From Eubacteriales bacterium (lineage in GTDB: Bacteria; Bacillota; Clostridia; Oscillospirales; CAG-272): a stretch of 64,000 nt of DNA. The position numbers were made by a program, and so were the translations under genes. Below the pieces are notes generated by a model that saw only the letters and a program-made list of their open reading frames with translations, was not told the DNA's origin and did not search any database. Positions 3,965 to 15,827 of the stretch are shown here, one piece after another. The stretch is from contig JAZNFZ010000071.1 of the NCBI GenBank assembly GCA_045576195.1, positions 4,479-68,478 of the forward strand, written 5' to 3'. Positions within the stretch are counted from its first letter, which is position 1; the number at the start of each line of letters is the position of its first letter.

Positions 3965-4129
3965 TGAGGCTCCTTCGCAGCAGCCCTGCTGCTTTTTTAT
4001 CAGAAATTAAAATTATTATAGCACAAGCCGCCTCATCTGTCAAGAATTGGAGCACCGCGGAAAATCAAAGCATTTTTTTCATCAAGCCCCGCCCCCTTGC
4101 ATACAATAGGAGAAAAGGAGTGTGATCTT

Positions 4130-5041
4130 GTGAGAGACGGTGGAATGATCAACTGGGAATATGTAATGGATGCAGCAGGCGCGCTGGCAAGTGAGGGTGA
4201 TATGGTGCGGGTCGAGACACTGACGCGCTCTGTTCTGGGGCGCGAGATCCCCCTGATCACCCTGGGGAAGGGCGAAAAAAGCGTGCTTTATGTGGGCGCA
4301 CATCATGGGATGGAATGGATCACTGCAGGGGTGCTGATCGATTTCGCAAGGGATCTTGTGTCGGCCTATCTTGCGGGAAGATCGGTTTTTGAATACCGCG
4401 CCGAGCATCTCCTTACGGCTCGCAAGATCTATATTGTTCCGATGCTCAATCCCGACGGCGTGGCGTACAGTCAATGCGGCGTGGAGGAGCATCATCCCTT
4501 GCGCGAGCGCTTGCTCCGAATGAACGGGGAGGCGGGTGAGGATTTCTCGCGCTGGCAGGCGAACGGACGCGGGGTAGACCTGAACCACAATTATGATGCG
4601 GGCTTTTTGGAGTACAAGGAAAAGGAGCGGCAGGCGGGACTTTTGAACGGCGCGCCCACCAGATACAGCGGCGAGTATCCCGAATCCGAGCCCGAGACCG
4701 CCGCGCTCTGCGCGCTGATCCGCGGGCGGCGCGAGGAGCTTGGCGGTGTGCTGACCCTCCACACCCAAGGAGAGGAGATCTATTGCAGCTGCGCCGATCG
4801 GATGACGGCAAAATGCACCGCCATCGGCAGGCTGTTGCAGCGATACACGGGGTATCGGCTGGCAAGTCCCACGGGTCTTGCCGCCTTTGGCGGTCTTACG
4901 GATTGGTGCATTGCCGCACAGGGGCTACCCGCCTTTACGCTGGAGTGCGGTCTTGGAGAAAATCCGCTGCCTGCCTCGCAACGCGCGGTGATCCTCGAGC
5001 GGCTGCGCCATGCGCTTTTTGCCTTTCCGTTCTGGGTATAA
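4130..5041 (+). CDS. M14-family zinc carboxypeptidase (gamma-D-glutamyl-diamino-acid peptidase-like)
   Basis: HHGMEW (HxxE zinc ligands) and GVDLNHNY motifs. Likely GTG start at 4130, 9 nt after AAGGAG (the track start 4097 is TTG). Confidence 0.8.
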   Translation: MRDGGMINWEYVMDAAGALASEGDMVRVETLTRSVLGREIPLITLGKGEKSVLYVGAHHGMEWITAGVLIDFARDLVSAYLAGRSVFEYRAEHLLTARKIYIVPMLNPDGVAYSQCGVEEHHPLRERLLRMNGEAGEDFSRWQANGRGVDLNHNYDAGFLEYKEKERQAGLLNGAPTRYSGEYPESEPETAALCALIRGRREELGGVLTLHTQGEEIYCSCADRMTAKCTAIGRLLQRYTGYRLASPTGLAAFGGLTDWCIAAQGLPAFTLECGLGENPLPASQRAVILERLRHALFAFPFWV

Positions 5042-5056
5042 AAAAGCAGGCAGCAA
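5040..5056. repeat. outer inverted repeat, left arm (AAAAAAGCAGGCAGCAA)
   Basis: Perfect reverse complement of 5919-5935. Begins within the stop codon of the peptidase gene. Confidence 0.9.
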
Positions 5057-5070
5057 CATAGGGTTGTCCC

Positions 5071-5086
5071 CTAAAGGACAGTTTTA
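5071..5086. repeat. inner inverted repeat, left copy (CTAAAGGACAGTTTTA)
   Basis: 14 of 16 positions match the reverse complement of 5891-5906. Confidence 0.8.
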
Positions 5087-5105
5087 CCAACCGCCAAAAA
5101 ATATA

Positions 5106-5133
5106 AACCGCAGATTGATTTTCTGCGGTTTTT
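5106..5133 (+). terminator. rho-independent terminator-like hairpin
   Basis: 8-bp stem AACCGCAG/CTGCGGTT, 9-nt loop, T-run. The loop contains the -35 of the next promoter. Confidence 0.6.
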
Positions 5134-5143
5134 GTGATATAAT
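5115..5143 (+). promoter_or_regulatory. sigma-A-type promoter TTGATT-17-TATAAT for the lipoprotein gene
   Basis: Hexamers at 5115-5120 and 5138-5143 with a 17-nt spacer. Confidence 0.55.
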
Positions 5144-5230
5144 AGAGTGTATGATTAACACTGTGCATAAAGGTGTTTTGTTACGATAAATCCGAACGAT
5201 AAATGAGAATTTGACGAAGGAGACTTCATC

Positions 5231-5719
5231 ATGAGATATGTAAAGTTAATTATATTAACTATCATCGGTTGCATCGTTTTTTCTTCTTGTAGCATCGTAG
5301 GTAGCGGGCAAGCCGAATACTTTGGCTTCAAAACAAGTGTGTTTACTGTTATCGACGAGAATGACACACACAGTGGCTTTCATGGTGATGGCTCCTATTA
5401 TCTAATTTTGGACTGCTCAGAAAAAAGAGAGCAAGCAATGGAACTTATCAAGGATTGGACACCGCTTCCTCTTACGGAGAATTTGCAGTTGATTATGTAT
5501 GGCGGTGAAAAGAATGGTGAGAGCTATGGCTATAATCTCGCAGAAGAAGCACATTGGCCTATTATTAATAACGGCGTTTATAAATTTGTTGATCGCTACT
5601 CAGGACCGGGCGATAAGTCAGATGATACAAACCTATTTAACAGATACTCTTATAATTTTTCTATTGCAGCATATGATTTAGATACTGACACATTGTATTA
5701 TTTTGAATTTGATACTTAA
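5231..5719 (+). CDS. putative lipoprotein, function unknown
   Basis: 162-aa ORF with an RBS GAAGGAG. Signal peptide ends in a lipobox-like FSSC. AT-rich codon usage unlike its neighbours. Confidence 0.6.
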   Translation: MRYVKLIILTIIGCIVFSSCSIVGSGQAEYFGFKTSVFTVIDENDTHSGFHGDGSYYLILDCSEKREQAMELIKDWTPLPLTENLQLIMYGGEKNGESYGYNLAEEAHWPIINNGVYKFVDRYSGPGDKSDDTNLFNRYSYNFSIAAYDLDTDTLYYFEFDT

Positions 5720-5766
5720 TTGTTAGTCAAATTCCAATTTGTCTAACGGATTTGCACCGCACTAAA

Positions 5767-5794
5767 GCCTCCCTTGTGTAAAGGGAGCCTTTTT
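5767..5794 (+). terminator. rho-independent terminator after lipoprotein gene
   Basis: Stem CTCCCTT/AAGGGAG, 5-nt loop, T5 run. Confidence 0.65.
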
Positions 5795-5851
5795 GTTTAT
5801 CTATGTCTCGTCAATTTTTCTGACAAGCACTGCATTTGTGGATACAAATGT

Positions 5852-5890
5852 AAAACACGGCATATCTCGAAAGAGGTATGCCGTGTTTTT
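5852..5890. terminator. bidirectional rho-independent terminator
   Basis: A4 run, 10-bp stem ACACGGCATA/TATGCCGTGT, 12-nt loop, T5 run. Confidence 0.7.
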
Positions 5891-5906
5891 GAAAACTATC
5901 CTTTAG
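5891..5906. repeat. inner inverted repeat, right copy (GAAAACTATCCTTTAG)
   Basis: Partner of 5071-5086 (14/16). Confidence 0.8.
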
Positions 5907-5918
5907 AGCGATGCCATA

Positions 5919-5935
5919 TTGCTGCCTGCTTTTTT
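5919..5935. repeat. outer inverted repeat, right arm (TTGCTGCCTGCTTTTTT)
   Basis: Perfect reverse complement of 5040-5056, 10 nt from the ruvB stop codon. Confidence 0.9.
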
Positions 5936-5945
5936 GCGGTGGAGC

Positions 5946-7022
5946 TTATGACTCCTCGCCGAATAAATTGATCTGTGCGCCCTCTCGCGGGGTACCGTGG
6001 TAGGGGAGCCCCAGATGCTCATAGGCACGCCTTGTCACACACCGCCCGCGGGGGGTGCGGGAGAGGAAGCCGATCTGCATGAGATAAGGCTCATAGACAT
6101 CCTCAAGGGTAACTGCCTCCTCGCCAATGGTGGCGGAAAGGGTCTCAAGACCCACGGGACCGCCATCGTAAAAGTTAATGATGGTGGTGAGCATACGGCG
6201 GTCGATGTTGTCAAGGCCGAGATGGTCGATCTCCAGACGCTGCAGCGCGAAATTGGCAATGTCAGAGGAAATGGTGCCGTCGCCGTTGACCTCGGCAAAG
6301 TCACGTACACGCTTGAAAAGACGGTTGGCGATGCGGGGTGTGCCGCGGGAGCGGGAGGCGATCTCAATGGCACCGTCATCGGAGATCGAAAGCCCCAGGA
6401 TCCCCGCGCTTCGGCGAACAATATCGGCCAGCTCCTCGGGGGTATAGAGATCGAGCTTGAGCAGCACACCAAATCGGTCGCGCAGCGGCGTGCTCAGCTG
6501 TCCTGCGCGCGTGGTGGCACCGATCAGCGTAAATTTGGGCAGATCAATGCGGATGCTACGTGCTGCAGGTCCTTTGCCGATGATAATATCCAGCGCATAG
6601 TCCTCCATTGCGGGGTAGAGGATCTCCTCTACGGCACGGGAAAGACGGTGGATCTCGTCAATAAACAGTACATCTCCCTCGGAAAGGTTGGTCAGCAGTG
6701 CCGCAAGGTCGCCCTGCTTTTCGATAGCGGGACCCGAGGTCACGCGGATGTTTACCCCCAGCTCATTGGCGATGATGGAGGAAAGCGTGGTCTTTCCAAG
6801 TCCGGGAGGGCCGTAAAGCAGTACGTGGTCAAGCGGATCGTGGCGCTTTTTTGCGGCATTGATGTAGACGCGCAGATTTTCCTTGACCTTTTCCTGGCCC
6901 ACGTAATCGTCAAGAGTCTGCGGGCGCAGGGTAATGTCGGGCTCGGTATCCTCTGCGGTCTCGGCGGTGGAGAGAATGCGGCTTTCAAAATCAAAATCGC
7001 TGTCGTCTGTGATAAAGCTCAT
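5946..7022 (-). CDS. ruvB: Holliday junction branch migration helicase RuvB
   Basis: Walker [10 protein letters not shown] and Walker B FIDEIH. ATG at 7022 lies 7 nt after AGGAGG (the track GTG at 7028 is too close to the RBS). Confidence 0.95.
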
Positions 7023-7034
7023 ATGCACTCCTCC

Positions 7035-8698: not shown

Positions 8699-9562
8699 AT
8701 GTGGACTTCACAAAATTGGAATGATTATGAGCTTCTTGACACCTCCGACGGGGAGCGTCTTGAGCGCTGGGGCAAATATGTTCTGATCCGTCCCGACCCC
8801 CAGATCATCTGGCACGGTGAGCAAAAGCACCCTCTTTGGAAAAAGGCTGACGGCGTGTATCGTCGCTCGCACGCGGGCGGTGGCGCCTGGAAGCAGAACC
8901 GCCTGCCCGAGCAGTGGCACGTGGGCTACGGCAACCTGAAATTTCTGATCCGCCCCATGGGCTTTAAGCACACGGGTCTTTTCCCTGAGCAGGCCGCAAA
9001 CTGGGATTGGTTTTCCCAAAAGATCCGTGAGGCAAAAAGACCCATCAAGGTGCTCAACCTCTTTGCCTATACGGGCGGAGCTACCGTTGCCGCGGCGGCT
9101 GCGGGTGCCTCGGTTGTTCACGTGGATGCCGCAAAGGGCATGGTGCAGCAGGCCAAGGAAAATGCAAGGCTCTCGGGGCTTGAAAATGCGCCGATCCGCT
9201 ATATTGTAGATGATTGCAAAAAGTTTGTGGAGCGCGAGATCAAGCGCGGCAATTTTTACGACGGCATTATTATGGACCCTCCCTCCTACGGCAGAGGCCC
9301 GTCGGGTGAGGTGTGGAAGATCGAGGACTGTGTGGACGAGCTGGTGGAGCTTGCCGCAAGGCTTCTTTCAAGAGAGCCCTTGTTTTTTCTGATCAATTCC
9401 TACACCACGGGGCTCTCTCCCTTGGCGATGAGCTATATTCTGGATCTCCGTGTCAAGGCTCGCTTCGGCGGTGTGACCCGCGCGGAGGAGCTCGGCCTTA
9501 AGGTGACGCGCACGGGCAGCTTTTTACCTTGCGGCGCCAGCGCGCGCTGGGAATTGGAGTGA
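8699..9562 (+). CDS. class I SAM-dependent (RNA) methyltransferase
   Basis: SAM-binding LNLFAYTGG and catalytic-type IIMDPPSYG motifs. ATG at 8699 chosen, because the track extension from 8615 overlaps ruvC. Confidence 0.75.
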   Translation: MWTSQNWNDYELLDTSDGERLERWGKYVLIRPDPQIIWHGEQKHPLWKKADGVYRRSHAGGGAWKQNRLPEQWHVGYGNLKFLIRPMGFKHTGLFPEQAANWDWFSQKIREAKRPIKVLNLFAYTGGATVAAAAAGASVVHVDAAKGMVQQAKENARLSGLENAPIRYIVDDCKKFVEREIKRGNFYDGIIMDPPSYGRGPSGEVWKIEDCVDELVELAARLLSREPLFFLINSYTTGLSPLAMSYILDLRVKARFGGVTRAEELGLKVTRTGSFLPCGASARWELE

Positions 9563-9564
9563 GT

Positions 9565-10449
9565 ATGGCAGAAGTCTTTATTCATGCAAAGGATCTGCGC
9601 TATTCCTATAGCGCTGAGGGCGAGGCAGAGGTGCCTGTGCTGCGCGGTGTTTCCTTTGATATCAAAAAAGGGGAGTATGTGGCTATTTTAGGGCACAACG
9701 GCTCGGGCAAATCTACCCTTGCCAAGCTCCTTAATCTGATTTTGGATGCCGAGTCCGGCGAGCTTAGCGTGGCAGGCATCGATCTTACCGATCCCGCGCT
9801 TACCGAGGATCGGATCTTTGAGCTGCGCCGCAATGTGGGCATGGTGTTTCAAAACCCCGACAATCAGCTTGTGGCGACCATCGTGGAGGAGGATGTGGCC
9901 TTCGGTCCCGAAAATCTTGGCGTCCCCTCGGCTGAGATCCGCCGCCGCGTGGACGAGGCGCTGGAAATGGTGGGGATGAGTGCCTACGCGCATCACGAGC
10001 CCAGCCGCCTTTCGGGCGGTCAGAAGCAGCGCGTTGCCATTGCGGGGCTGCTTGCCATGATGCCGTCCTGTATGATTTTTGATGAGTCCACCGCAATGCT
10101 TGACCCTGCGGGTCGCCGTGAGGTGATCGATACCATTGAAAGACTCAATCGGGAGCGGGGCATCACGGTGCTGACCATCACACACTATATGAACGAGGCG
10201 GCGCGAGCCGATCGCGTGATCGTGATCGACGACGGTCTGGTGCTGATGGACGGCACGCCGCGCGAGGTCTTCTCGCACCCTGCAGCGCTTGCGGCCGCAG
10301 GGCTTGATGTGCCGCAATGCACCTCGCTTGTGCACGGACTGCGCGAGGAGGGAATTGACATTGCGGGAGAGCCGATCTCGACCGAGGAGTGTGCAGATCT
10401 CATCTGCCGTGCGCTAAAGGAGGGGAACTATGGCGACAGTCACGCTTGA
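9565..10449 (+). CDS. ecfA1: ECF transporter ATPase component EcfA1
   Basis: Walker A GHNGSGKST, signature LSGGQKQR, Walker B MIFDEST. ATG at 9565 lies just after the upstream stop. Confidence 0.9.
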   Translation: MAEVFIHAKDLRYSYSAEGEAEVPVLRGVSFDIKKGEYVAILGHNGSGKSTLAKLLNLILDAESGELSVAGIDLTDPALTEDRIFELRRNVGMVFQNPDNQLVATIVEEDVAFGPENLGVPSAEIRRRVDEALEMVGMSAYAHHEPSRLSGGQKQRVAIAGLLAMMPSCMIFDESTAMLDPAGRREVIDTIERLNRERGITVLTITHYMNEAARADRVIVIDDGLVLMDGTPREVFSHPAALAAAGLDVPQCTSLVHGLREEGIDIAGEPISTEECADLICRALKEGNYGDSHA

Positions 10450-11278
10450 GAATGTCAGCTATACCTACGGACGGGGAACTCCCTTTGAGATCAAGGCGCT
10501 CGATCACGTTTCGCTGTCGGTCAAAAGCGGATCGATCACGGGGATCATCGGGCATACGGGCTCGGGAAAATCCACCATGGTGCAGCTCCTTAACGGTCTT
10601 GAGAAGCCCGATGAGGGCAGAATCCTGCTTGACGGCAAGGACATCTGGGAAAACCCAAAGAATATGAAGCAGATCCGCTTTCGGGTGGGTCTTGTGATGC
10701 AGTATCCCGAGTACCAGCTCTTTGAGGAGACGATCCGCGAGGATATTGCCTTCGGCCCGCGCAATATGGGTCTTGACGAGGCGGAGATTGAGCGCCGCGT
10801 GATGCAGGCGGCCGCCCTTGTGGGGCTTTCTGCCGAGCAGCTTGAAAAATCCCCCTTTGATCTTTCGGGAGGCCAGAAGCGCCGTGCCGCCATCGCAGGC
10901 GTCATGGCAATGCGCCCCGAGGTGCTGGTGCTGCATGAGCCCGCCGCGGGGCTTGATCCGCGGGGCAGAGATGCCATTTTGCAGGGCATTTCCCGCTACC
11001 GCGCGGAAACGGGAGCCACGGTGATCATTGTCAGCCATAGCATGGAGGACATGGCCACCTATTGCGACGACGTGATCGTGATGGCCAAGGCAAGGGTCTT
11101 TCTGTCGGGCTCGCGCGATGCGGTGTTTGCCCGCGCGGATGAGCTGTTTTCCGTGGGGCTGGATGTGCCGCAGATCTCTCGCCTGATATGGCTGCTTCGG
11201 GAGCGCGGCATAGAGCTGCCCTCCGATATCTATACGGTAGAGGCGGCACTTGCCGCCGTAAAAAAATTATTTCGGTAA
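10430..11278 (+). CDS. ecfA2: ECF transporter ATPase component EcfA2
   Basis: GHTGSGKST, LSGGQKRR and LVLHEPAAGLD motifs. Overlaps the ecfA1 stop. Confidence 0.9.
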   Translation: MATVTLENVSYTYGRGTPFEIKALDHVSLSVKSGSITGIIGHTGSGKSTMVQLLNGLEKPDEGRILLDGKDIWENPKNMKQIRFRVGLVMQYPEYQLFEETIREDIAFGPRNMGLDEAEIERRVMQAAALVGLSAEQLEKSPFDLSGGQKRRAAIAGVMAMRPEVLVLHEPAAGLDPRGRDAILQGISRYRAETGATVIIVSHSMEDMATYCDDVIVMAKARVFLSGSRDAVFARADELFSVGLDVPQISRLIWLLRERGIELPSDIYTVEAALAAVKKLFR

Positions 11279-11296
11279 AGGAATTGCAAGCCCATT

Positions 11297-12115
11297 ATGA
11301 ATACCATTGCTTTTGGGCAGTATTTTCCTGCCCACTCCCCCCTGCATCGGCTGGATGCGCGTATAAAGGTCATTCTCACCATCCTTTATATCGTGGCTGC
11401 CTTCCTTTGCAAAAACGTGCTGGCCTTTGCCGCCCTGGCACTCTCCGCACTCTTTCTCATCCTCCTCAGCCGCATACCCGTAAGGGTGGTGCTGCGGTCG
11501 ATCAAGCCCCTGATCTTTATTATGCTTTTTACCGTGATCATCCATCTTTTCTGGTCGTCGGGAGAAACGCTGCTGCTTCATTTCTGGCGGATCAGTATTT
11601 ATCTTGAAAGCATCTATAACGCGGTGTTTATGGTGGTTCGCATTCTGGTGCTGATCTTAGGTACGGGCATGTTTTTGACCTACACCACCACACCTATTGA
11701 ACTGACCGATGCCATTGAGAGCCTTCTCTCGCCCCTGCGGCTGATTCGCCTTCCCGTGCACGAGTTTGCCATGATGATGACCATTGCGCTGCGCTTTATT
11801 CCCACCCTGATGGAGGAGACCTCGAAGATTATGAACGCGCAAAAGGCGCGCGGCGTGGATTTTTCGGAGGGCGGGCTGATCAAAAGAGCCAAGGCTCTGA
11901 TCCCGATCCTCATACCGTTGTTTGTTTCCTCCTTCCGCAGAGCCGACGAGCTGGCGCTGGCAATGGAATGCCGCTGCTACCGTGGGGGTAAGGGAAGGAC
12001 CAAAATGACGGTGCATCGGCTCCATTTCCGTGATTTTGCCGCTCTGTTTCTGATGCTCGCTTTCGGCGCGGCACTGCTTTATCTCAACCATCTGGCCATC
12101 GGCTATACGAGGTGA
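11297..12115 (+). CDS. ecfT: ECF transporter transmembrane component EcfT
   Basis: Multi-TM protein of 272 aa with the conserved AQKARG loop. Classical ecfA1-A2-T-truA order. Confidence 0.9.
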   Translation: MNTIAFGQYFPAHSPLHRLDARIKVILTILYIVAAFLCKNVLAFAALALSALFLILLSRIPVRVVLRSIKPLIFIMLFTVIIHLFWSSGETLLLHFWRISIYLESIYNAVFMVVRILVLILGTGMFLTYTTTPIELTDAIESLLSPLRLIRLPVHEFAMMMTIALRFIPTLMEETSKIMNAQKARGVDFSEGGLIKRAKALIPILIPLFVSSFRRADELALAMECRCYRGGKGRTKMTVHRLHFRDFAALFLMLAFGAALLYLNHLAIGYTR

Positions 12116-12119
12116 TGCA

Positions 12120-12887
12120 ATGAAGCTGTTGTTAACGGTTGCCTACGTGGGAACGGCGTATTGCGGCTATCAGGTCCAGCCCAACGGCGTGACCGTGCAG
12201 GAGGCGCTCAACACCGCCGCCAAGGCACTCTTTGGTGTGGACTGTGACATCGTGGGCTGCAGCCGCACGGATAGCGGCGTGCACGCCAGAGCCTTTCAAG
12301 CCACGGTTTGCGAAAAAGGGAAATCGGGGCTTTCCACCACGCTGCCGCCCTCTCGGGTGCCGCGGGCGATGAACGCCTTTTTACCAAAGGATATTTCGGT
12401 GCTTGCCGCCCGTGCGGTGGAGGATTCCTTCCACGCCCGCTATGATGTGCATTCCAAGGAGTATGAATATCTGCTCCTCAATACGCGGGAGCGCGATCCT
12501 TTTCTCGCGGATCGTGTCTGGCACTACCCGACCCCGCTTGATGAAAATGCCCTTTGCCTGATGAACAGGGCAGCAGAGGCCTTTGTCGGCACCAGGGATT
12601 TTTCCGCCCTGCGCGACGGGGGCGCGGATGCTGAGGAGAATGCAGTCCGCACCGTGTATTCCGCCTCGGTGACAAGAAGGGGAGATCTGATCTCCTTTCG
12701 AGTGCGCGCCGACGGATTTCTTTATCATATGGTGCGTATTATGATGGGCACACTCATTGCGGTAGCAAAGGGGAAGATCCCCGCCGACGAGATCGAGGCG
12801 CGCCTTCTTACGCTTGACCGCGCCAAAATGGGCGAGACCGCGCCTGCCGCGGGGCTTTATCTTGACCGCGTATTTTACAAGAACTAA
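12120..12887 (+). CDS. truA: tRNA pseudouridine(38-40) synthase TruA (3' end supplied by inserted DNA)
   Basis: Catalytic RTDSGVHA motif. The last 5 codons after 12871 switch to AT-rich usage. Confidence 0.9.
   Translation: MKLLLTVAYVGTAYCGYQVQPNGVTVQEALNTAAKALFGVDCDIVGCSRTDSGVHARAFQATVCEKGKSGLSTTLPPSRVPRAMNAFLPKDISVLAARAVEDSFHARYDVHSKEYEYLLLNTRERDPFLADRVWHYPTPLDENALCLMNRAAEAFVGTRDFSALRDGGADAEENAVRTVYSASVTRRGDLISFRVRADGFLYHMVRIMMGTLIAVAKGKIPADEIEARLLTLDRAKMGETAPAAGLYLDRVFYKN
12857..12871 (+). repeat. direct repeat copy 1 (TTATCTTGACCGCGT), att-like core in truA
   Basis: Identical 15-mer recurs at 14522-14536. Confidence 0.9.
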
Positions 12888-12956
12888 AAGTCAAATCAAA
12901 GATAAACTTTTGAAAAAATAGACAAATACACCCTTTCAGGTATGTCGGAGCTTGTT

Positions 12957-13838
12957 ATGAAACGCTTTTCTATCTTTCTTATGTGTTTGTGTATGATGTT
13001 CAACTGTTTCGTACTTTTAACATTTGCCCATTCTGGGAAAACAGATGCAAATGGTGGCCACACAAATTATGCTACTGGGGAATATCATTATCATCACGGC
13101 GAATCAGCACATCAGCATCCTAATGGTAAATGCCCTTATGAAACCAAAAACAATATAATAAATATCTTCATATATATCGTGCTGGGTGGAGTTGGCTTGT
13201 TTGTGCTGTGGAATTTGGTTATATCACCGCTTATACATCCTTCGGAGATGAAATCACCCCAAAACGACAAAACCCCATCACTATCAGAGGCATCCTCTTT
13301 GCCTCAAAAAGAGTCGCAGCAGCATTTGAATATTTCTGCATCTTCTGCTGTGACTAAGGAAGTTCCTTCGTTGACAAATGTTAACTCAACAAAAACACAT
13401 TATACCTCGGTGAGGCAACCACCTGCACCTCGTCCGTTTTTTGGTTCAATTCCGTCAAAAGGTACTCATATCAGCCAACCTCCTGTTGTTGCAAACGGTA
13501 GCCTATCAGATCATCCTGATATTTTAGGAGTGGACCGTGCTTATTTAACAGAAAAACAGGCTTTAGCTTATGCCCTCTCGATTGAAACGCCGCGCGGAAA
13601 AAAGGCCGTTACAGAACAAATCCTTCTTGACAACATTGAGACTGAAGATGGTACAAAGCCATTTCGTGTCACCTGCTCTACCACTTCTCTTAATTCTTAT
13701 CAGCAATATCGCACTACGCTTGTTTCTTGTACTTGTAAGGATTATCAGACACGTCATTTGCCCTGCAAGCATATGATTGCGCTAGCAATCAATATCAATG
13801 CTATCACGGTGGATATGGAAGTGTTGCAAAAACGTTAA
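12957..13838 (+). CDS. membrane protein with N-terminal YHYH-motif domain and C-terminal SWIM zinc finger
   Basis: Signal/anchor MKRFSIFLMCLCMMFNCFVLLTFA; GGHTNYATGEYHYHHG; second TM; S/P/Q-rich linker; CTCKDYQTRHLPCKH (CxCx9CxH). ATG at 12957 lies 7 nt after GGAG (the track start is 12942). Confidence 0.6.
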   Translation: MKRFSIFLMCLCMMFNCFVLLTFAHSGKTDANGGHTNYATGEYHYHHGESAHQHPNGKCPYETKNNIINIFIYIVLGGVGLFVLWNLVISPLIHPSEMKSPQNDKTPSLSEASSLPQKESQQHLNISASSAVTKEVPSLTNVNSTKTHYTSVRQPPAPRPFFGSIPSKGTHISQPPVVANGSLSDHPDILGVDRAYLTEKQALAYALSIETPRGKKAVTEQILLDNIETEDGTKPFRVTCSTTSLNSYQQYRTTLVSCTCKDYQTRHLPCKHMIALAININAITVDMEVLQKR

Positions 13839-13879
13839 TTAAAAAAATATCGCCCGAGTGGAGGGTAAGGAAGGTTATT

Positions 13880-14530
13880 ATGGAAGGAATTGCTGTCATT
13901 ATAGGACTTTGTGTTTTTCTTATCCCTTTAATTTACGTTATACGCGAAATTGCAGAAGGTATTTCTAGGAAAAGACAATTGGATAATCCTTATGTCAATA
14001 CCAAATCCAAAGCATATTTGGAAGCTGAATTTCGCAGGATTGCTGCACGAAATAAAAATTGGGCGGAAGCGCTTGAATACATGAATAAATGTTATTGTCT
14101 TCAAATCTCTCAAGATGAAATATTAGAAATGAGCAGACACGAAGAACCCCTTATTTCCTTGGCACAAAAAATAACGACGGGCAAGCCTACTGTTATGTTC
14201 TATATGTTCTCGATGCATAACATGTTGGTTGATTTGATGGCTGAAATGCAACTCGATGAAACAAGTCAATCTTCTATTGTCTCTGATTTTTTAGCTTCAA
14301 TTTCATGTGTTACTGACGAAGTAATTGATAAAATCGCAAAATCCTTTGCTGCTAATTTATCCGAGAAGTTGTATTTTTTGAAAGAAAAAATCAATTATGA
14401 ATTAGCTGCGCTTGGTTTTATTATGCAGTATGGTGTTGATTCAGGTAAAACTTATATTTGTGATAAGGTAAACGGAATTCGCAGAAAAAGAGAGACTTAT
14501 GTATCAATCTTGCGTTCTTCGTTATCTTGA
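13880..14530 (+). CDS. hypothetical N-terminally membrane-anchored protein
   Basis: 216-aa ORF with RBS AAGGAAGG, one N-terminal TM and a helical remainder. The stop codon lies inside the right direct repeat. Confidence 0.5.
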   Translation: MEGIAVIIGLCVFLIPLIYVIREIAEGISRKRQLDNPYVNTKSKAYLEAEFRRIAARNKNWAEALEYMNKCYCLQISQDEILEMSRHEEPLISLAQKITTGKPTVMFYMFSMHNMLVDLMAEMQLDETSQSSIVSDFLASISCVTDEVIDKIAKSFAANLSEKLYFLKEKINYELAALGFIMQYGVDSGKTYICDKVNGIRRKRETYVSILRSSLS

Positions 14531-14536
14531 CCGCGT
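14522..14536 (+). repeat. direct repeat copy 2 (TTATCTTGACCGCGT)
   Basis: Identical to 12857-12871. Confidence 0.9.
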
Positions 14537-14555
14537 GCTCTATCGGGAGCCGTAA
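14523..14555 (+). pseudogene. displaced remnant of the original truA 3' end (YLDRVLYREP-stop)
   Basis: Read in the frame set by the repeat, it gives the same YLDRV motif followed by LYREP-stop in GC-rich codons. This parallels the YLDRVFYKN-stop at the current truA end. Confidence 0.6.
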
Positions 14556-14597
14556 GGACCGCACGGATTTTCTATATCAAATAAAGGAGGAAGGACC

Positions 14598-15827
14598 ATG
14601 AATGACGAGATCAAGGACCGCGAGGTGACGGATGCCGAAGAGGCATTGCTGCCCGAGGCAGAGGTGGGCGCTACCGACTATTGGAAAAAAAGCGCTTCTA
14701 CCTATACGCTGATGGCGCGGATCCTCACCGTGGCGCTGGTGCTGTTTTTGGTGTTTTTCTCTATGTTTTATTCAAGGGCCTTCTCTCACCGAGGCTTCCA
14801 CTACTTTGTAAAGGATCTGCTGGCGCTGGCGGGCACCTCGCCCGAGCAGTCGGGCAAGGTCTATTACACACCGAGCGAGGGCGAGAGCCATATTTTTGCC
14901 TTCCGCGGCGGCGTGGCGCAGGTCAACACCACGGGAGTTGAGGTCTGCTCGGCAGACGGCCGTCGGCTTTTGCGGGTGGAGCACGCGCTCACCACACCGC
15001 GCGCTGCCTGCTCCCGCAAATATCTGGTGGCGTATGATTTTGGCGGCACCTCCTTTGTGGTGTGCAATTCCTATGCCGAGCTTTACCGTGCCGAGACTGC
15101 GGATCCCATTTCCTATTGCGCGGTTTCGGATTCGGGGCATTTTCTTCTGGTGACCCGCTCGGAAAACGCTCTGACCTCGGTGCTGCTTTACAATGCAAGC
15201 TGTGAGCAGATCCAGAAATTTGAGCGTGCCTCCGCCACTATCGGCGCAGCTGTTTCGGATAACGGCAGCTATGTGGCCCTGGTGGGACTTTCCCTTGAGT
15301 CGGGCGAGAAGGTGGCGCGGCTTGATGTGTTTGAGATCGGAAAAGCAGAGCCGAGGGCGAGTGTTCGCCTGAACGGTGAGGTGCCGCTGCGGGTGGACTT
15401 CCTGTCCTCGCGTCAGCTGGTGCTGCTGACCGACAAGGGCACCTATACCTATCAGACCGACGGGAAGCAGCTTGGCAGTGTTGCTCACGGTGAGGATACT
15501 CCCTATTCCTTTGCCGTGGGAGATGCCTCCCTTGCGCTGGTGCTGAAGACCGACTCTGCCACCACCCCTTACCGCATTCTGGTGGTGAACAGGAGGGGAG
15601 AGGCGCTCTATAACAGTGTCTTTGCCGATGAGGTGATCGCGGCTTCACTTTTCGACGGTGTGCTGTTTTTGCTGTCGCCTGACCGTGTGACAAGAGTCGA
15701 TCTTGGCAAAGGCGAGACGGATACCGTCCCTTGCACTGTGGGTGCTGTAGGGCTTTCCGCTCTTGCTGATGACCGCGTGCAGGTCTTTTACGAGGCTGTT
15801 GCGGTGTATGTTTCGTTTGATGATTGA
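14598..15827 (+). CDS. hypothetical membrane-anchored protein with beta-rich extracytoplasmic domain
   Basis: 409-aa ORF with a strong RBS AAAGGAGG, a single TM near residues 40-60, and repetitive beta-strand-like segments. No catalytic motif recognised. Confidence 0.6.
   Translation: MNDEIKDREVTDAEEALLPEAEVGATDYWKKSASTYTLMARILTVALVLFLVFFSMFYSRAFSHRGFHYFVKDLLALAGTSPEQSGKVYYTPSEGESHIFAFRGGVAQVNTTGVEVCSADGRRLLRVEHALTTPRAACSRKYLVAYDFGGTSFVVCNSYAELYRAETADPISYCAVSDSGHFLLVTRSENALTSVLLYNASCEQIQKFERASATIGAAVSDNGSYVALVGLSLESGEKVARLDVFEIGKAEPRASVRLNGEVPLRVDFLSSRQLVLLTDKGTYTYQTDGKQLGSVAHGEDTPYSFAVGDASLALVLKTDSATTPYRILVVNRRGEALYNSVFADEVIAASLFDGVLFLLSPDRVTRVDLGKGETDTVPCTVGAVGLSALADDRVQVFYEAVAVYVSFDD

Follow-up and report, generated by a model that had tools for sequence, protein, structure and literature searches.

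What does a protein do when it is predicted to place a histidine-rich YHYH module outside the membrane and a SWIM zinc finger inside it, and how did its gene come to lie directly behind truA? These questions are raised by a 64,000-nucleotide stretch of contig JAZNFZ010000071.1 from a Eubacteriales bacterium (the window), in which an open reading frame (ORF) for 293 amino acids plus a stop codon, here called the YHYH-SWIM gene, occupies positions 12957-13838 of the + strand. We find that its relatives lie in the lysogeny operons of temperate phages, next to the recombinase gene, and that the window copy sits in a small islet inserted at the 3' end of truA. From sequence and genomic context, we give an even chance to the reading that the product is a lysogen-expressed, membrane-tethered exclusion or defence protein that recognises DNA or protein.

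The limits of the gene are consistent across several lines of evidence. A longer reading of the ORF is possible from an ATG at 12942. The ATG at 12957 is favoured because a GGAG sequence (12947-12950) lies ahead of it with a spacer of 6 nt, because an identical 293-residue protein in the public collection (P0001) begins with MKR, and because the homologs start likewise: the N-termini of the aligned sequences read MK(R/H) or MRR in all but two. With the stop codon at 13836-13838, the ribosome-binding site, P0001 and the homolog starts agree on the coordinates 12957-13838 given in the preliminary description.

Along the protein, the segments follow one another in the order first proposed, with a signal or anchor, the YHYH motif, a transmembrane (TM) segment, a linker and the SWIM finger. 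Hydrophobic segments span residues 2-26 and 65-94, the second having a hydropathy of 2.38. The SWIM call stands, as residues 237-280 match Pfam SWIM (PF04434) with 31.4 bits against a gathering score of 19.6. The YHYH call stands in part. Residues 23-46 match the NCBIfam model YHYH_alt (NF033223) over profile positions 2-25 of 25, with 44.5 bits against a curated cut-off of 30, whereas the Pfam YHYH family gives no match to the protein at E≤1, and the Pfam YHYH domain is absent from the precomputed annotation of the 120 homologs listed. The assignment is valid for the short NCBIfam 'alt' model alone, and not for Pfam YHYH. The Pfam YHYH domain occurs in the tails of jumbo phages; it has been described as enigmatic and predicted to be a metal-dependent hydrolase (Iyer et al. 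2021, PMC7824862). Both carry the GxYHYH motif together with conserved His and Asp residues that are predicted metal ligands, and both are extracytoplasmic and linked to phages (PMC7824862). The window protein differs in matching the 25-residue YHYH_alt model only, as a stub of ~40 residues at the mature N-terminus, and YHYH_alt belongs to the lysogeny module where Pfam YHYH belongs to the tail module; this is a comparison of motifs, and homology of the two is not implied.

A full-length AlphaFold2 model, built with 16 homologs, features helices at residues 2-22 and 66-93, a disordered stretch at 94-185 with a predicted local distance difference test (pLDDT) score below 50, and a confidently folded part at 185-293. 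The linker corresponds to residues 95-184 (13239-13508, + strand), a low-complexity, S/P/T/Q-rich segment that is predicted to be cytoplasmic and has no secondary structure in the model. The C-terminal domain (residues 185-293; 13509-13835, + strand), modelled alone with 17 sequences, reached a pLDDT of 95.5 and a predicted template modelling (pTM) score of 0.89. A strand is followed by two helices, a sheet of three strands, and short helices bearing the CxH half of the SWIM knuckle. The four residues of the CxCx9CxH motif, C258, C260, C270 and H272 (13728-13772, + strand), are invariant both in 16 full-length homologs (alignment A1) and in 133 further relatives (alignment A3), and the SWIM domain is predicted to bind zinc through them.

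SWIM domains of the PF04434 type are known from MuDR/FAR1 transposase relatives, from MEKK1 and from bacterial SNF2-associated proteins. The window protein resembles these in its CxCxnCxH pattern, in its score above the gathering threshold and in its predicted cytoplasmic location. It differs from them in that the knuckle ends a larger domain of ~110 residues, which is membrane-tethered and phage-borne, and in that there is no SNF2 helicase or transposase context.

The arrangement proposed at the outset, with YHYH outside and SWIM inside, is supported by the N-terminal signal and by the charges around the TM helix. The n-region reads MKR, and a [VAST]-x-A pattern at positions -3 and -1 precedes the invariant His: 117 of the 119 aligned sequences have Ala at -1, and 102 have A, V or S at -3. 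Given this signal-peptidase I pattern, the invariant His would become the first residue of the mature protein, and residues 1-24 (12957-13028, + strand), consisting of MKR, a hydrophobic core and T-F-A, would form a cleavable signal peptide cut before His25. A lipoprotein identity was rejected, since there is no Cys at the cleavage site. The TM helix (residues 65-94; 13149-13238, + strand) is supported by hydropathy, by the model helix at 66-93 and by a charge bias in homologs. We measured this bias over 15 residues on either side of the TM in 41 cluster representatives combining YHYH and a TM with a C-terminal CxC...CxH. The mean number of K+R is 0.78 before the TM (D+E 2.56) and 2.51 after it, and the bias is positive-inside in 32 representatives, tied in 6 and reversed in 3. 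Be the signal peptide cut or uncut, these signals place the C-terminal part in the cytoplasm, a location that fits a Cys/His zinc site. We hold with high confidence that the protein, predicted from its signal peptide and TM helix to reside at the cytoplasmic membrane, is bitopic, with an outer YHYH_alt module of ~40 residues, one TM, a linker of ~90 residues and an inner SWIM domain of ~110 residues. As a separate observation, His25 (13029-13031) directly follows the predicted cleavage site; a His at the mature N-terminus would be reminiscent of histidine-brace copper sites, a resemblance that we offer purely as conjecture.

This combination of YHYH and SWIM is real and recurrent. A word-indexed search of public proteins returned 167 relatives, among which P0002-P0017 are full length, 30-49% identical to the window protein and built from the same parts in the same order. 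The order of signal peptide, YHYH, TM and SWIM is whole in at least 41 cluster representatives, and the architecture is therefore not a product of chance. Within the ectodomain (residues 25-64; 13029-13148, + strand; HSGKTDANGGHTNYATGEYHYHHGESAHQHPNGKCPY...), the 16-sequence alignment has the invariant residues A24, H25, G27, T29, D30, G33, G34, H35, T40, E42, Y43, H44, Y45, H46 and G48, the first of these lying just ahead of the predicted cut, and the YHYH_alt module is predicted to bind metal. Within the SWIM part, C258, C260, D262, R266, C270, K271 and H272 are invariant. The linker differs in length from homolog to homolog and resists alignment, and in P0020-P0033 a coiled coil takes its place. 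Most of the other relatives match in the signal peptide, YHYH_alt and TM only and have different C-termini, such as KTSC domains or multi-TM regions; one of the KTSC versions comes from a Caudoviricetes record. The preliminary description had not recognised the architecture as described, and we likewise found no description in the searchable literature: searches pairing SWIM with prophage or phage returned nothing relevant, and those for YHYH returned one relevant paper (PMC7824862). The database label is just 'YHYH domain-containing protein', the name that NCBI gives to one full-length homolog.

To place the family in its genomic setting, we inspected the neighbourhoods of seven homologs (P0002, P0006, P0007, P0011, P0012, P0019 and P0026), all of which share one layout. 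One strand carries a cro-like helix-turn-helix (HTH) gene and early genes (PcfJ, DUF3102), and the opposite strand carries, as a divergent operon, a CI-like HTH repressor gene, zero to two small ORFs, the YHYH-SWIM gene and a recombinase gene, followed by host genes; the count of seven includes L093, whose downstream gene is cut at the contig end and is without Pfam annotation. An M78 ImmA-like peptidase lies near the repressor in some of the loci. The recombinase is of the tyrosine type in L001, L002, L004, L088 and L092 and of the large serine type in L089. A specific partnership with the recombinase was considered and rejected, because the slot is used with both types.

Viral contigs extend this picture. 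A scan of IMG/VR identified 184 contigs that encode relatives, the likeness being to the N-terminal module in nearly every case, and in 26 of the 61 contigs of at least 20 kb the gene starts within 4 kb of the downstream contig end. Of 72 IMG/VR loci with a recognisable YHYH_alt ORF, 54 have a recombinase gene downstream on the same strand (tyrosine in 37, serine in 17), none has one upstream, and 8 are uninformative; the gap between the two genes has a median of 1 kb and is within 250 nt in 18 cases. The isolated Fusobacterium phage JD-Fnp2 has a LexA-family repressor, a 116-residue YHYH_alt protein and an integrase, in that order. The YHYH_alt membrane module is thus characteristic cargo of the recombinase-proximal slot in temperate phages, and we conclude with high confidence that the YHYH-TM-SWIM family is standard lysogeny-operon cargo of temperate phages of Clostridia. 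This slot houses lysogen-expressed exclusion and conversion genes such as ltp (PMC3952083), and expression of the YHYH-SWIM genes in lysogens would be expected from their position.

Two further features of these loci were observed. Three viral contigs (L020, L035 and L037, at about 5940-6980) contain two tandem YHYH_alt genes, for 118-130 and 202 residues, with no recombinase detected within 5.5 kb downstream. A hairpin, GCCGCCCTCTCAGGCGGC, preceded by an A-run, lies 10-45 nt upstream of the YHYH-SWIM start at L001 7960-7990, L092 4880-4915 and L093 1425-1460, and resembles a terminator that would serve either the minus strand or the repressor gene upstream.

The C-terminal half has a distribution of its own. 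A profile of the last ~110 residues, searched against 1.84 billion cluster representatives (50% identity), matched the SWIM-type domain of 2705 representatives at E≤1e-3 and of 377 at E≤1e-10. Among the 133 best new relatives, 12 have YHYH and a TM, 68 have an N-terminal hydrophobic anchor only, and 53 are soluble, often with two SWIM units. The anchored proteins without YHYH that we read have an uncharged or acidic N-terminus, a K/R cluster after the helix and essentially no ectodomain; this cluster points to an N-out, C-in orientation, with the SWIM domain in the cytoplasm. Pfam SWIM was detected in 123 of the 133, and the only other recurrent domains are nucleases, namely Mrr_cat (11), RNase_T (3) and RNase_H_2 (2). 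One such protein, P0187 (L094 7001-8743), is 580 residues long and consists of a TM anchor, a coiled coil, a SWIM-type domain and an Mrr_cat nuclease. It contains the sequence GRD...IQCKR, which we take to be the D...QxK pattern of Mrr-type nucleases. In its prophage, P0187 is preceded by an HTH repressor / M78 peptidase and followed by a small ORF and a serine recombinase, which is the slot of the YHYH-SWIM genes; the early genes of the same prophage include two DNA methylase genes. Taken together, these distributions show that the YHYH_alt and SWIM halves are independent modules.

This modularity bears on the idea, put forward in the preliminary description, of a one-component-like transmembrane sensor, in which the outer His-rich module would sense a metal or another cue and the SWIM domain would relay it to DNA, or to the repressor or recombinase, and so tune lysogeny. 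The out/in architecture that it calls for is real, the ectodomain residues H25, D30, H35, E42, H44 and H46 are invariant as expected of a metal site, and the gene lies in a regulatory lysogeny operon beside the repressor, often 1-15 nt from the recombinase gene or overlapping it. The sensing part of the idea is weakened, however, by close SWIM-domain relatives that keep the TM anchor and linker without the ectodomain, so that input from outside would not be needed for the core function, and by the joining of YHYH_alt elsewhere to unrelated or absent cytoplasmic parts (KTSC, multi-TM). The sharing of the slot with two unrelated recombinase families argues against a specific partner. Moreover, Pfam detects no HTH or other known bacterial DNA-binding output domain in the protein, and a single pass followed by a disordered linker of 90 residues would be a poor conformational conduit unless signalling went via oligomerisation. 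Unlike regulators of the ToxR/CadC type, the protein is without an HTH, and its polarity is reversed, with the would-be sensor N-terminal and outside and the output C-terminal. The architecture that inspired the sensor idea stands, and a sensory function for it appears unlikely to us.

The reading to which we give an even chance, that of an exclusion or defence protein, would work as follows. The protein would be made in the lysogen together with the repressor and would sit in the membrane through which superinfecting phages pass their DNA. The SWIM-type domain on the cytoplasmic side would recognise the incoming DNA, or a DNA-associated phage protein, at the site of entry and would block or sequester it, the outcome being superinfection exclusion or defence. 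Sister proteins in the prophage slot that bear an Mrr-type nuclease would cut the DNA instead. The YHYH_alt outer module would be an optional accessory, with possible roles in positioning or oligomerising the protein or in contact with the tail tip of the infecting phage.

There are functional precedents for such a protein. Ltp of the Streptococcus thermophilus phage TP-J34, a precedent for membrane-located exclusion proteins encoded in lysogeny modules, is a lipoprotein that lies wholly outside and binds the tape-measure protein (PMC3952083). Exclusion proteins of the Ltp/Sie2009 type resemble the YHYH-SWIM family in their moron-like distribution and variable sequence (PMC3952083); unlike Ltp, the YHYH-SWIM family spans the membrane and has a conserved, folded SWIM domain predicted to be cytoplasmic. 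Membrane-anchored abortive-infection proteins offer a second precedent, in PdpSau from a Staphylococcus aureus prophage and in the lactococcal AbiP cited with it (PMC10127798). Each combines an N-terminal anchor with a cytoplasmic part for which nucleic-acid binding is known or predicted; they are found on prophages or plasmids and target infecting phages at the inner membrane face (PMC10127798). They differ from YHYH-SWIM in fold, and neither is known to have a SWIM domain or a YHYH-type ectodomain. In addition, pdpSau lies in the lysis module and the YHYH-SWIM family in the lysogeny module (PMC10127798). By analogy, the functionally nearest known proteins would be the exclusion proteins of the Ltp/Sie type and the membrane-anchored Abi proteins, and YHYH-SWIM is a member of neither group.

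Several points weigh against an exclusion or defence role. The function of the family is read from sequence and genomic context, and our searches did not link its sequence to any known Sie, Ltp or Abi protein. A search of PADLOC-DB 2.0 gave only a weak SWIM_XIII match (E=0.0018 over a 40-residue motif), with none for the neighbouring orf216, and PHROGs gave no family at E<0.05, the best match having E=0.078; the YHYH-SWIM protein is in no known defence family. The window protein itself has no nuclease or other effector domain. The SWIM domains of eukaryotes act mainly in protein interaction, so that the one here may recognise protein and not DNA. Nor does the fold help. Foldseek found nothing in the PDB with the C-terminal domain model, nothing in the PDB at E<0.5 with the full model and nothing in the viral library BFVD at E≤0.001, the best viral structural match being a 130-residue Caudovirales protein mislabelled 'DNA ligase' (E=0.026). 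Nor did a profile search with the C-terminal domain find anything among PDB sequences, and in the absence of a similar solved structure the fold offers no functional hint. The TM flanks of the window protein are themselves weakly biased, with 2 K/R before the helix and 1 after it. A position beside the recombinase marks a moron slot and not a specific function, and the window copy is situated outside any prophage, without repressor or integrase, so that the lysogeny-operon argument holds for its relatives and not for the copy itself. Finally, a promoter and terminator scan gave nothing above shuffled expectation, and no promoter-like site was found upstream on the + strand.

A more specific form of the exclusion or defence role seems to us improbable. 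It holds that these proteins form an undescribed class of prophage transmembrane exclusion or defence proteins that pair a His-brace-like ectodomain with a DNA-capturing SWIM domain. The N-terminal His freed by cleavage would form a Cu or Zn site, and the ectodomain would engage the tail tip or the tape-measure protein outside. Beneath it, the SWIM domain would capture the entering DNA end or a pilot protein, and the TM-SWIM-Mrr proteins would represent an 'armed' form.

The outer module could also be seen as serving the host. The gene would then be a lysogenic-conversion gene for a surface metal-binding, scavenging or envelope factor, with SWIM as a scaffold, and would have been retained after the phage decayed. 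Consistent with this, the YHYH_alt module is also found on surface proteins that appear unrelated to phages and whose N-terminal domains resemble copper amine oxidases (PF07833), 'peptidoglycan binding' is the annotation of one Fusobacterium phage homolog, and the window gene is intact, with every family-invariant residue, though the rest of the element is gone. A purely extracellular role is, however, ill-suited to the conserved cytoplasmic SWIM domain and to the nuclease-fused relatives. Since the islet is known from one genome only, it also provides no evidence of selective retention, and we rate a host-beneficial role as the least probable of the explanations considered here, slightly below the sensor.

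How, then, did the gene come to lie behind truA? It had been presented as the lead gene of a 'truA cassette'; what we find instead is an insertion bounded by att-like repeats. The repeat, direct, exact and 15 nt long (TTATCTTGACCGCGT), has its left copy at 12857-12871 (+ strand), inside the 3' end of truA, as an attL-like core, and its right copy at 14522-14536 (+ strand), as an attR-like core through which the truA frame continues as ...LDRVLYREP*. These are the two exact copies in the window, where 0 are expected from 100 shuffles. The islet that they delimit (12872-14536, 1665 bp including the right repeat) contains the YHYH-SWIM gene and orf216 only, with no recombinase, and is flanked by truA (12120-12887) and a DUF5711 gene (14598-15827). 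Its G+C content is 34-45%, against 54-63% in the flanks, and the left repeat coincides with a drop from about 56% to about 36-45%.

Such features typify an element that has integrated site-specifically at the 3' terminus of a gene and replaced the tail of that gene with one of its own. As the islet stands, the truA product ends in ...LDRVFYKN*; with the flanks joined, it ends in ...LDRVLYREP*. TruA ends in ...LDRVFY* and ...LDRVYY* in two related Eubacteriales genomes. As to the native tail, base composition favours the right-hand one and the VFY of the relatives favours neither clearly. In the same two related genomes, which are metagenome-assembled genomes (MAGs; L086 and L087, TruA identity 66%), ecfT, truA, the DUF5711 gene and clpC are contiguous, with a gap of 13-43 nt between truA and the DUF5711 gene, and this empty site identifies the islet as an insertion. 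We conclude with high confidence that site-specific recombination put the islet into the 3' end of truA and that the recombinase and the rest of the phage are gone. For annotation, the 'truA cassette' is an att-flanked remnant, separate from the ecf-truA operon.

The parent element was not found. No integrase-like ORF is present in the whole 64-kb window, and the predicted attP-side sequence is absent from IMG/VR. Neither the predicted same-species empty junction nor a degenerate pattern for the reconstructed truA tail is present in Joint Genome Institute (JGI) metagenomes, and the 15-mer TTATCTTGACCGCGT is absent from all homolog and relative loci compared. Exact look-ups of the YHYH-SWIM and DUF5711 proteins of the window returned no record, and an Rfam scan of 12000-15000 gave nothing. 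Similarity between the islet and the homolog prophages is limited to the YHYH-SWIM gene and about 45 nt upstream of it, which in the prophages is intergenic DNA.

In streptococcal integrative and conjugative elements (ICEs), the CIME concept covers att-flanked cis-mobilisable elements and prophage remnants without recombination genes. The islet is similar in being bounded by exact direct repeats at a housekeeping gene's 3' end, in having a frame restored by element sequence and in lacking an integrase. It differs in measuring only 1.7 kb, in holding two genes and in having no identified parent element.

The second islet gene, orf216 (13880-14530, + strand), is preceded by a good ribosome-binding site, encodes 216 residues with a TM segment at the N-terminus and has its stop codon inside the right repeat. 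It is an ORFan, with no relative except itself among 5.8 billion proteins and no family in Pfam, NCBIfam, PHROGs or PADLOC searches. The suggestion that it is a co-occurring partner of the YHYH-SWIM gene finds no support, given that it is without homologs and absent from all seven homolog loci. A degraded integrase in the orf216 region was also considered and rejected, as there is no similarity to the integrases of the homologs.

The condition of the islet raises one more explanation, namely that the gene is here a functionless remnant, part of a decaying prophage or of cis-mobilisable debris, and is no longer expressed or useful. The islet has no recombinase, repressor or other phage gene, the GCCGCCCTCTCAGGCGGC-type hairpin is degenerate in the window copy (12918-12945), no sigma-70-like promoter was detected upstream, and the neighbour, orf216, is an ORFan. 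On the other side, the ORF is full length with a good Shine-Dalgarno sequence, and none of the 33 family-invariant positions of alignment A1 is lost, these positions being by definition those of the window protein too. Moreover, truA immediately precedes the gene on the same strand and no convincing terminator separates the two, so that read-through transcription is plausible. We consider loss of function in the window copy about as doubtful as a sensory role, and retain a membrane-tethered exclusion or defence protein as the favoured reading.

The surroundings of the islet were noted as well. Upstream lies a conserved ecfA1-ecfA2-ecfT-truA cluster (9529-12887), and downstream of the DUF5711 gene lies a ClpC-like ATPase gene whose product is 78-79% identical to those of two Eubacteriales MAGs. 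This makes the source of the window an uncultured member of the Clostridia, and the GTDB representative set yielded no genome of the same species. The window has a second patch of low G+C content at 5050-5950 (32-42%, against 57-65% in its flanks), between an M14 carboxypeptidase gene (4097-5041) and a RuvB-like ORF (5946-7028, minus strand). It contains an ORF at 5231-5719 (+ strand) for 162 residues with a lipoprotein-like N-terminus (MRYVKLIILTIIGCIVFSSC) and no Pfam family, and may be another small acquired islet.

If the exclusion or defence reading is true, the YHYH-SWIM gene would be the visible tip of a large uncharacterised family with 2705 SWIM-type representatives, many of them anchored and some fused to Mrr nucleases. 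The YHYH_alt module, whose invariant His is predicted to open the mature protein, is a compact candidate metal site, and the bacterial SWIM finger would gain a testable role in recognising incoming DNA or protein at the membrane. The carriers are temperate phages of gut Clostridia and Fusobacteria, in a slot that is classic for superinfection exclusion and prophage-mediated defence, and the proteins would constitute a new family of prophage-encoded defences that current defence databases have missed.

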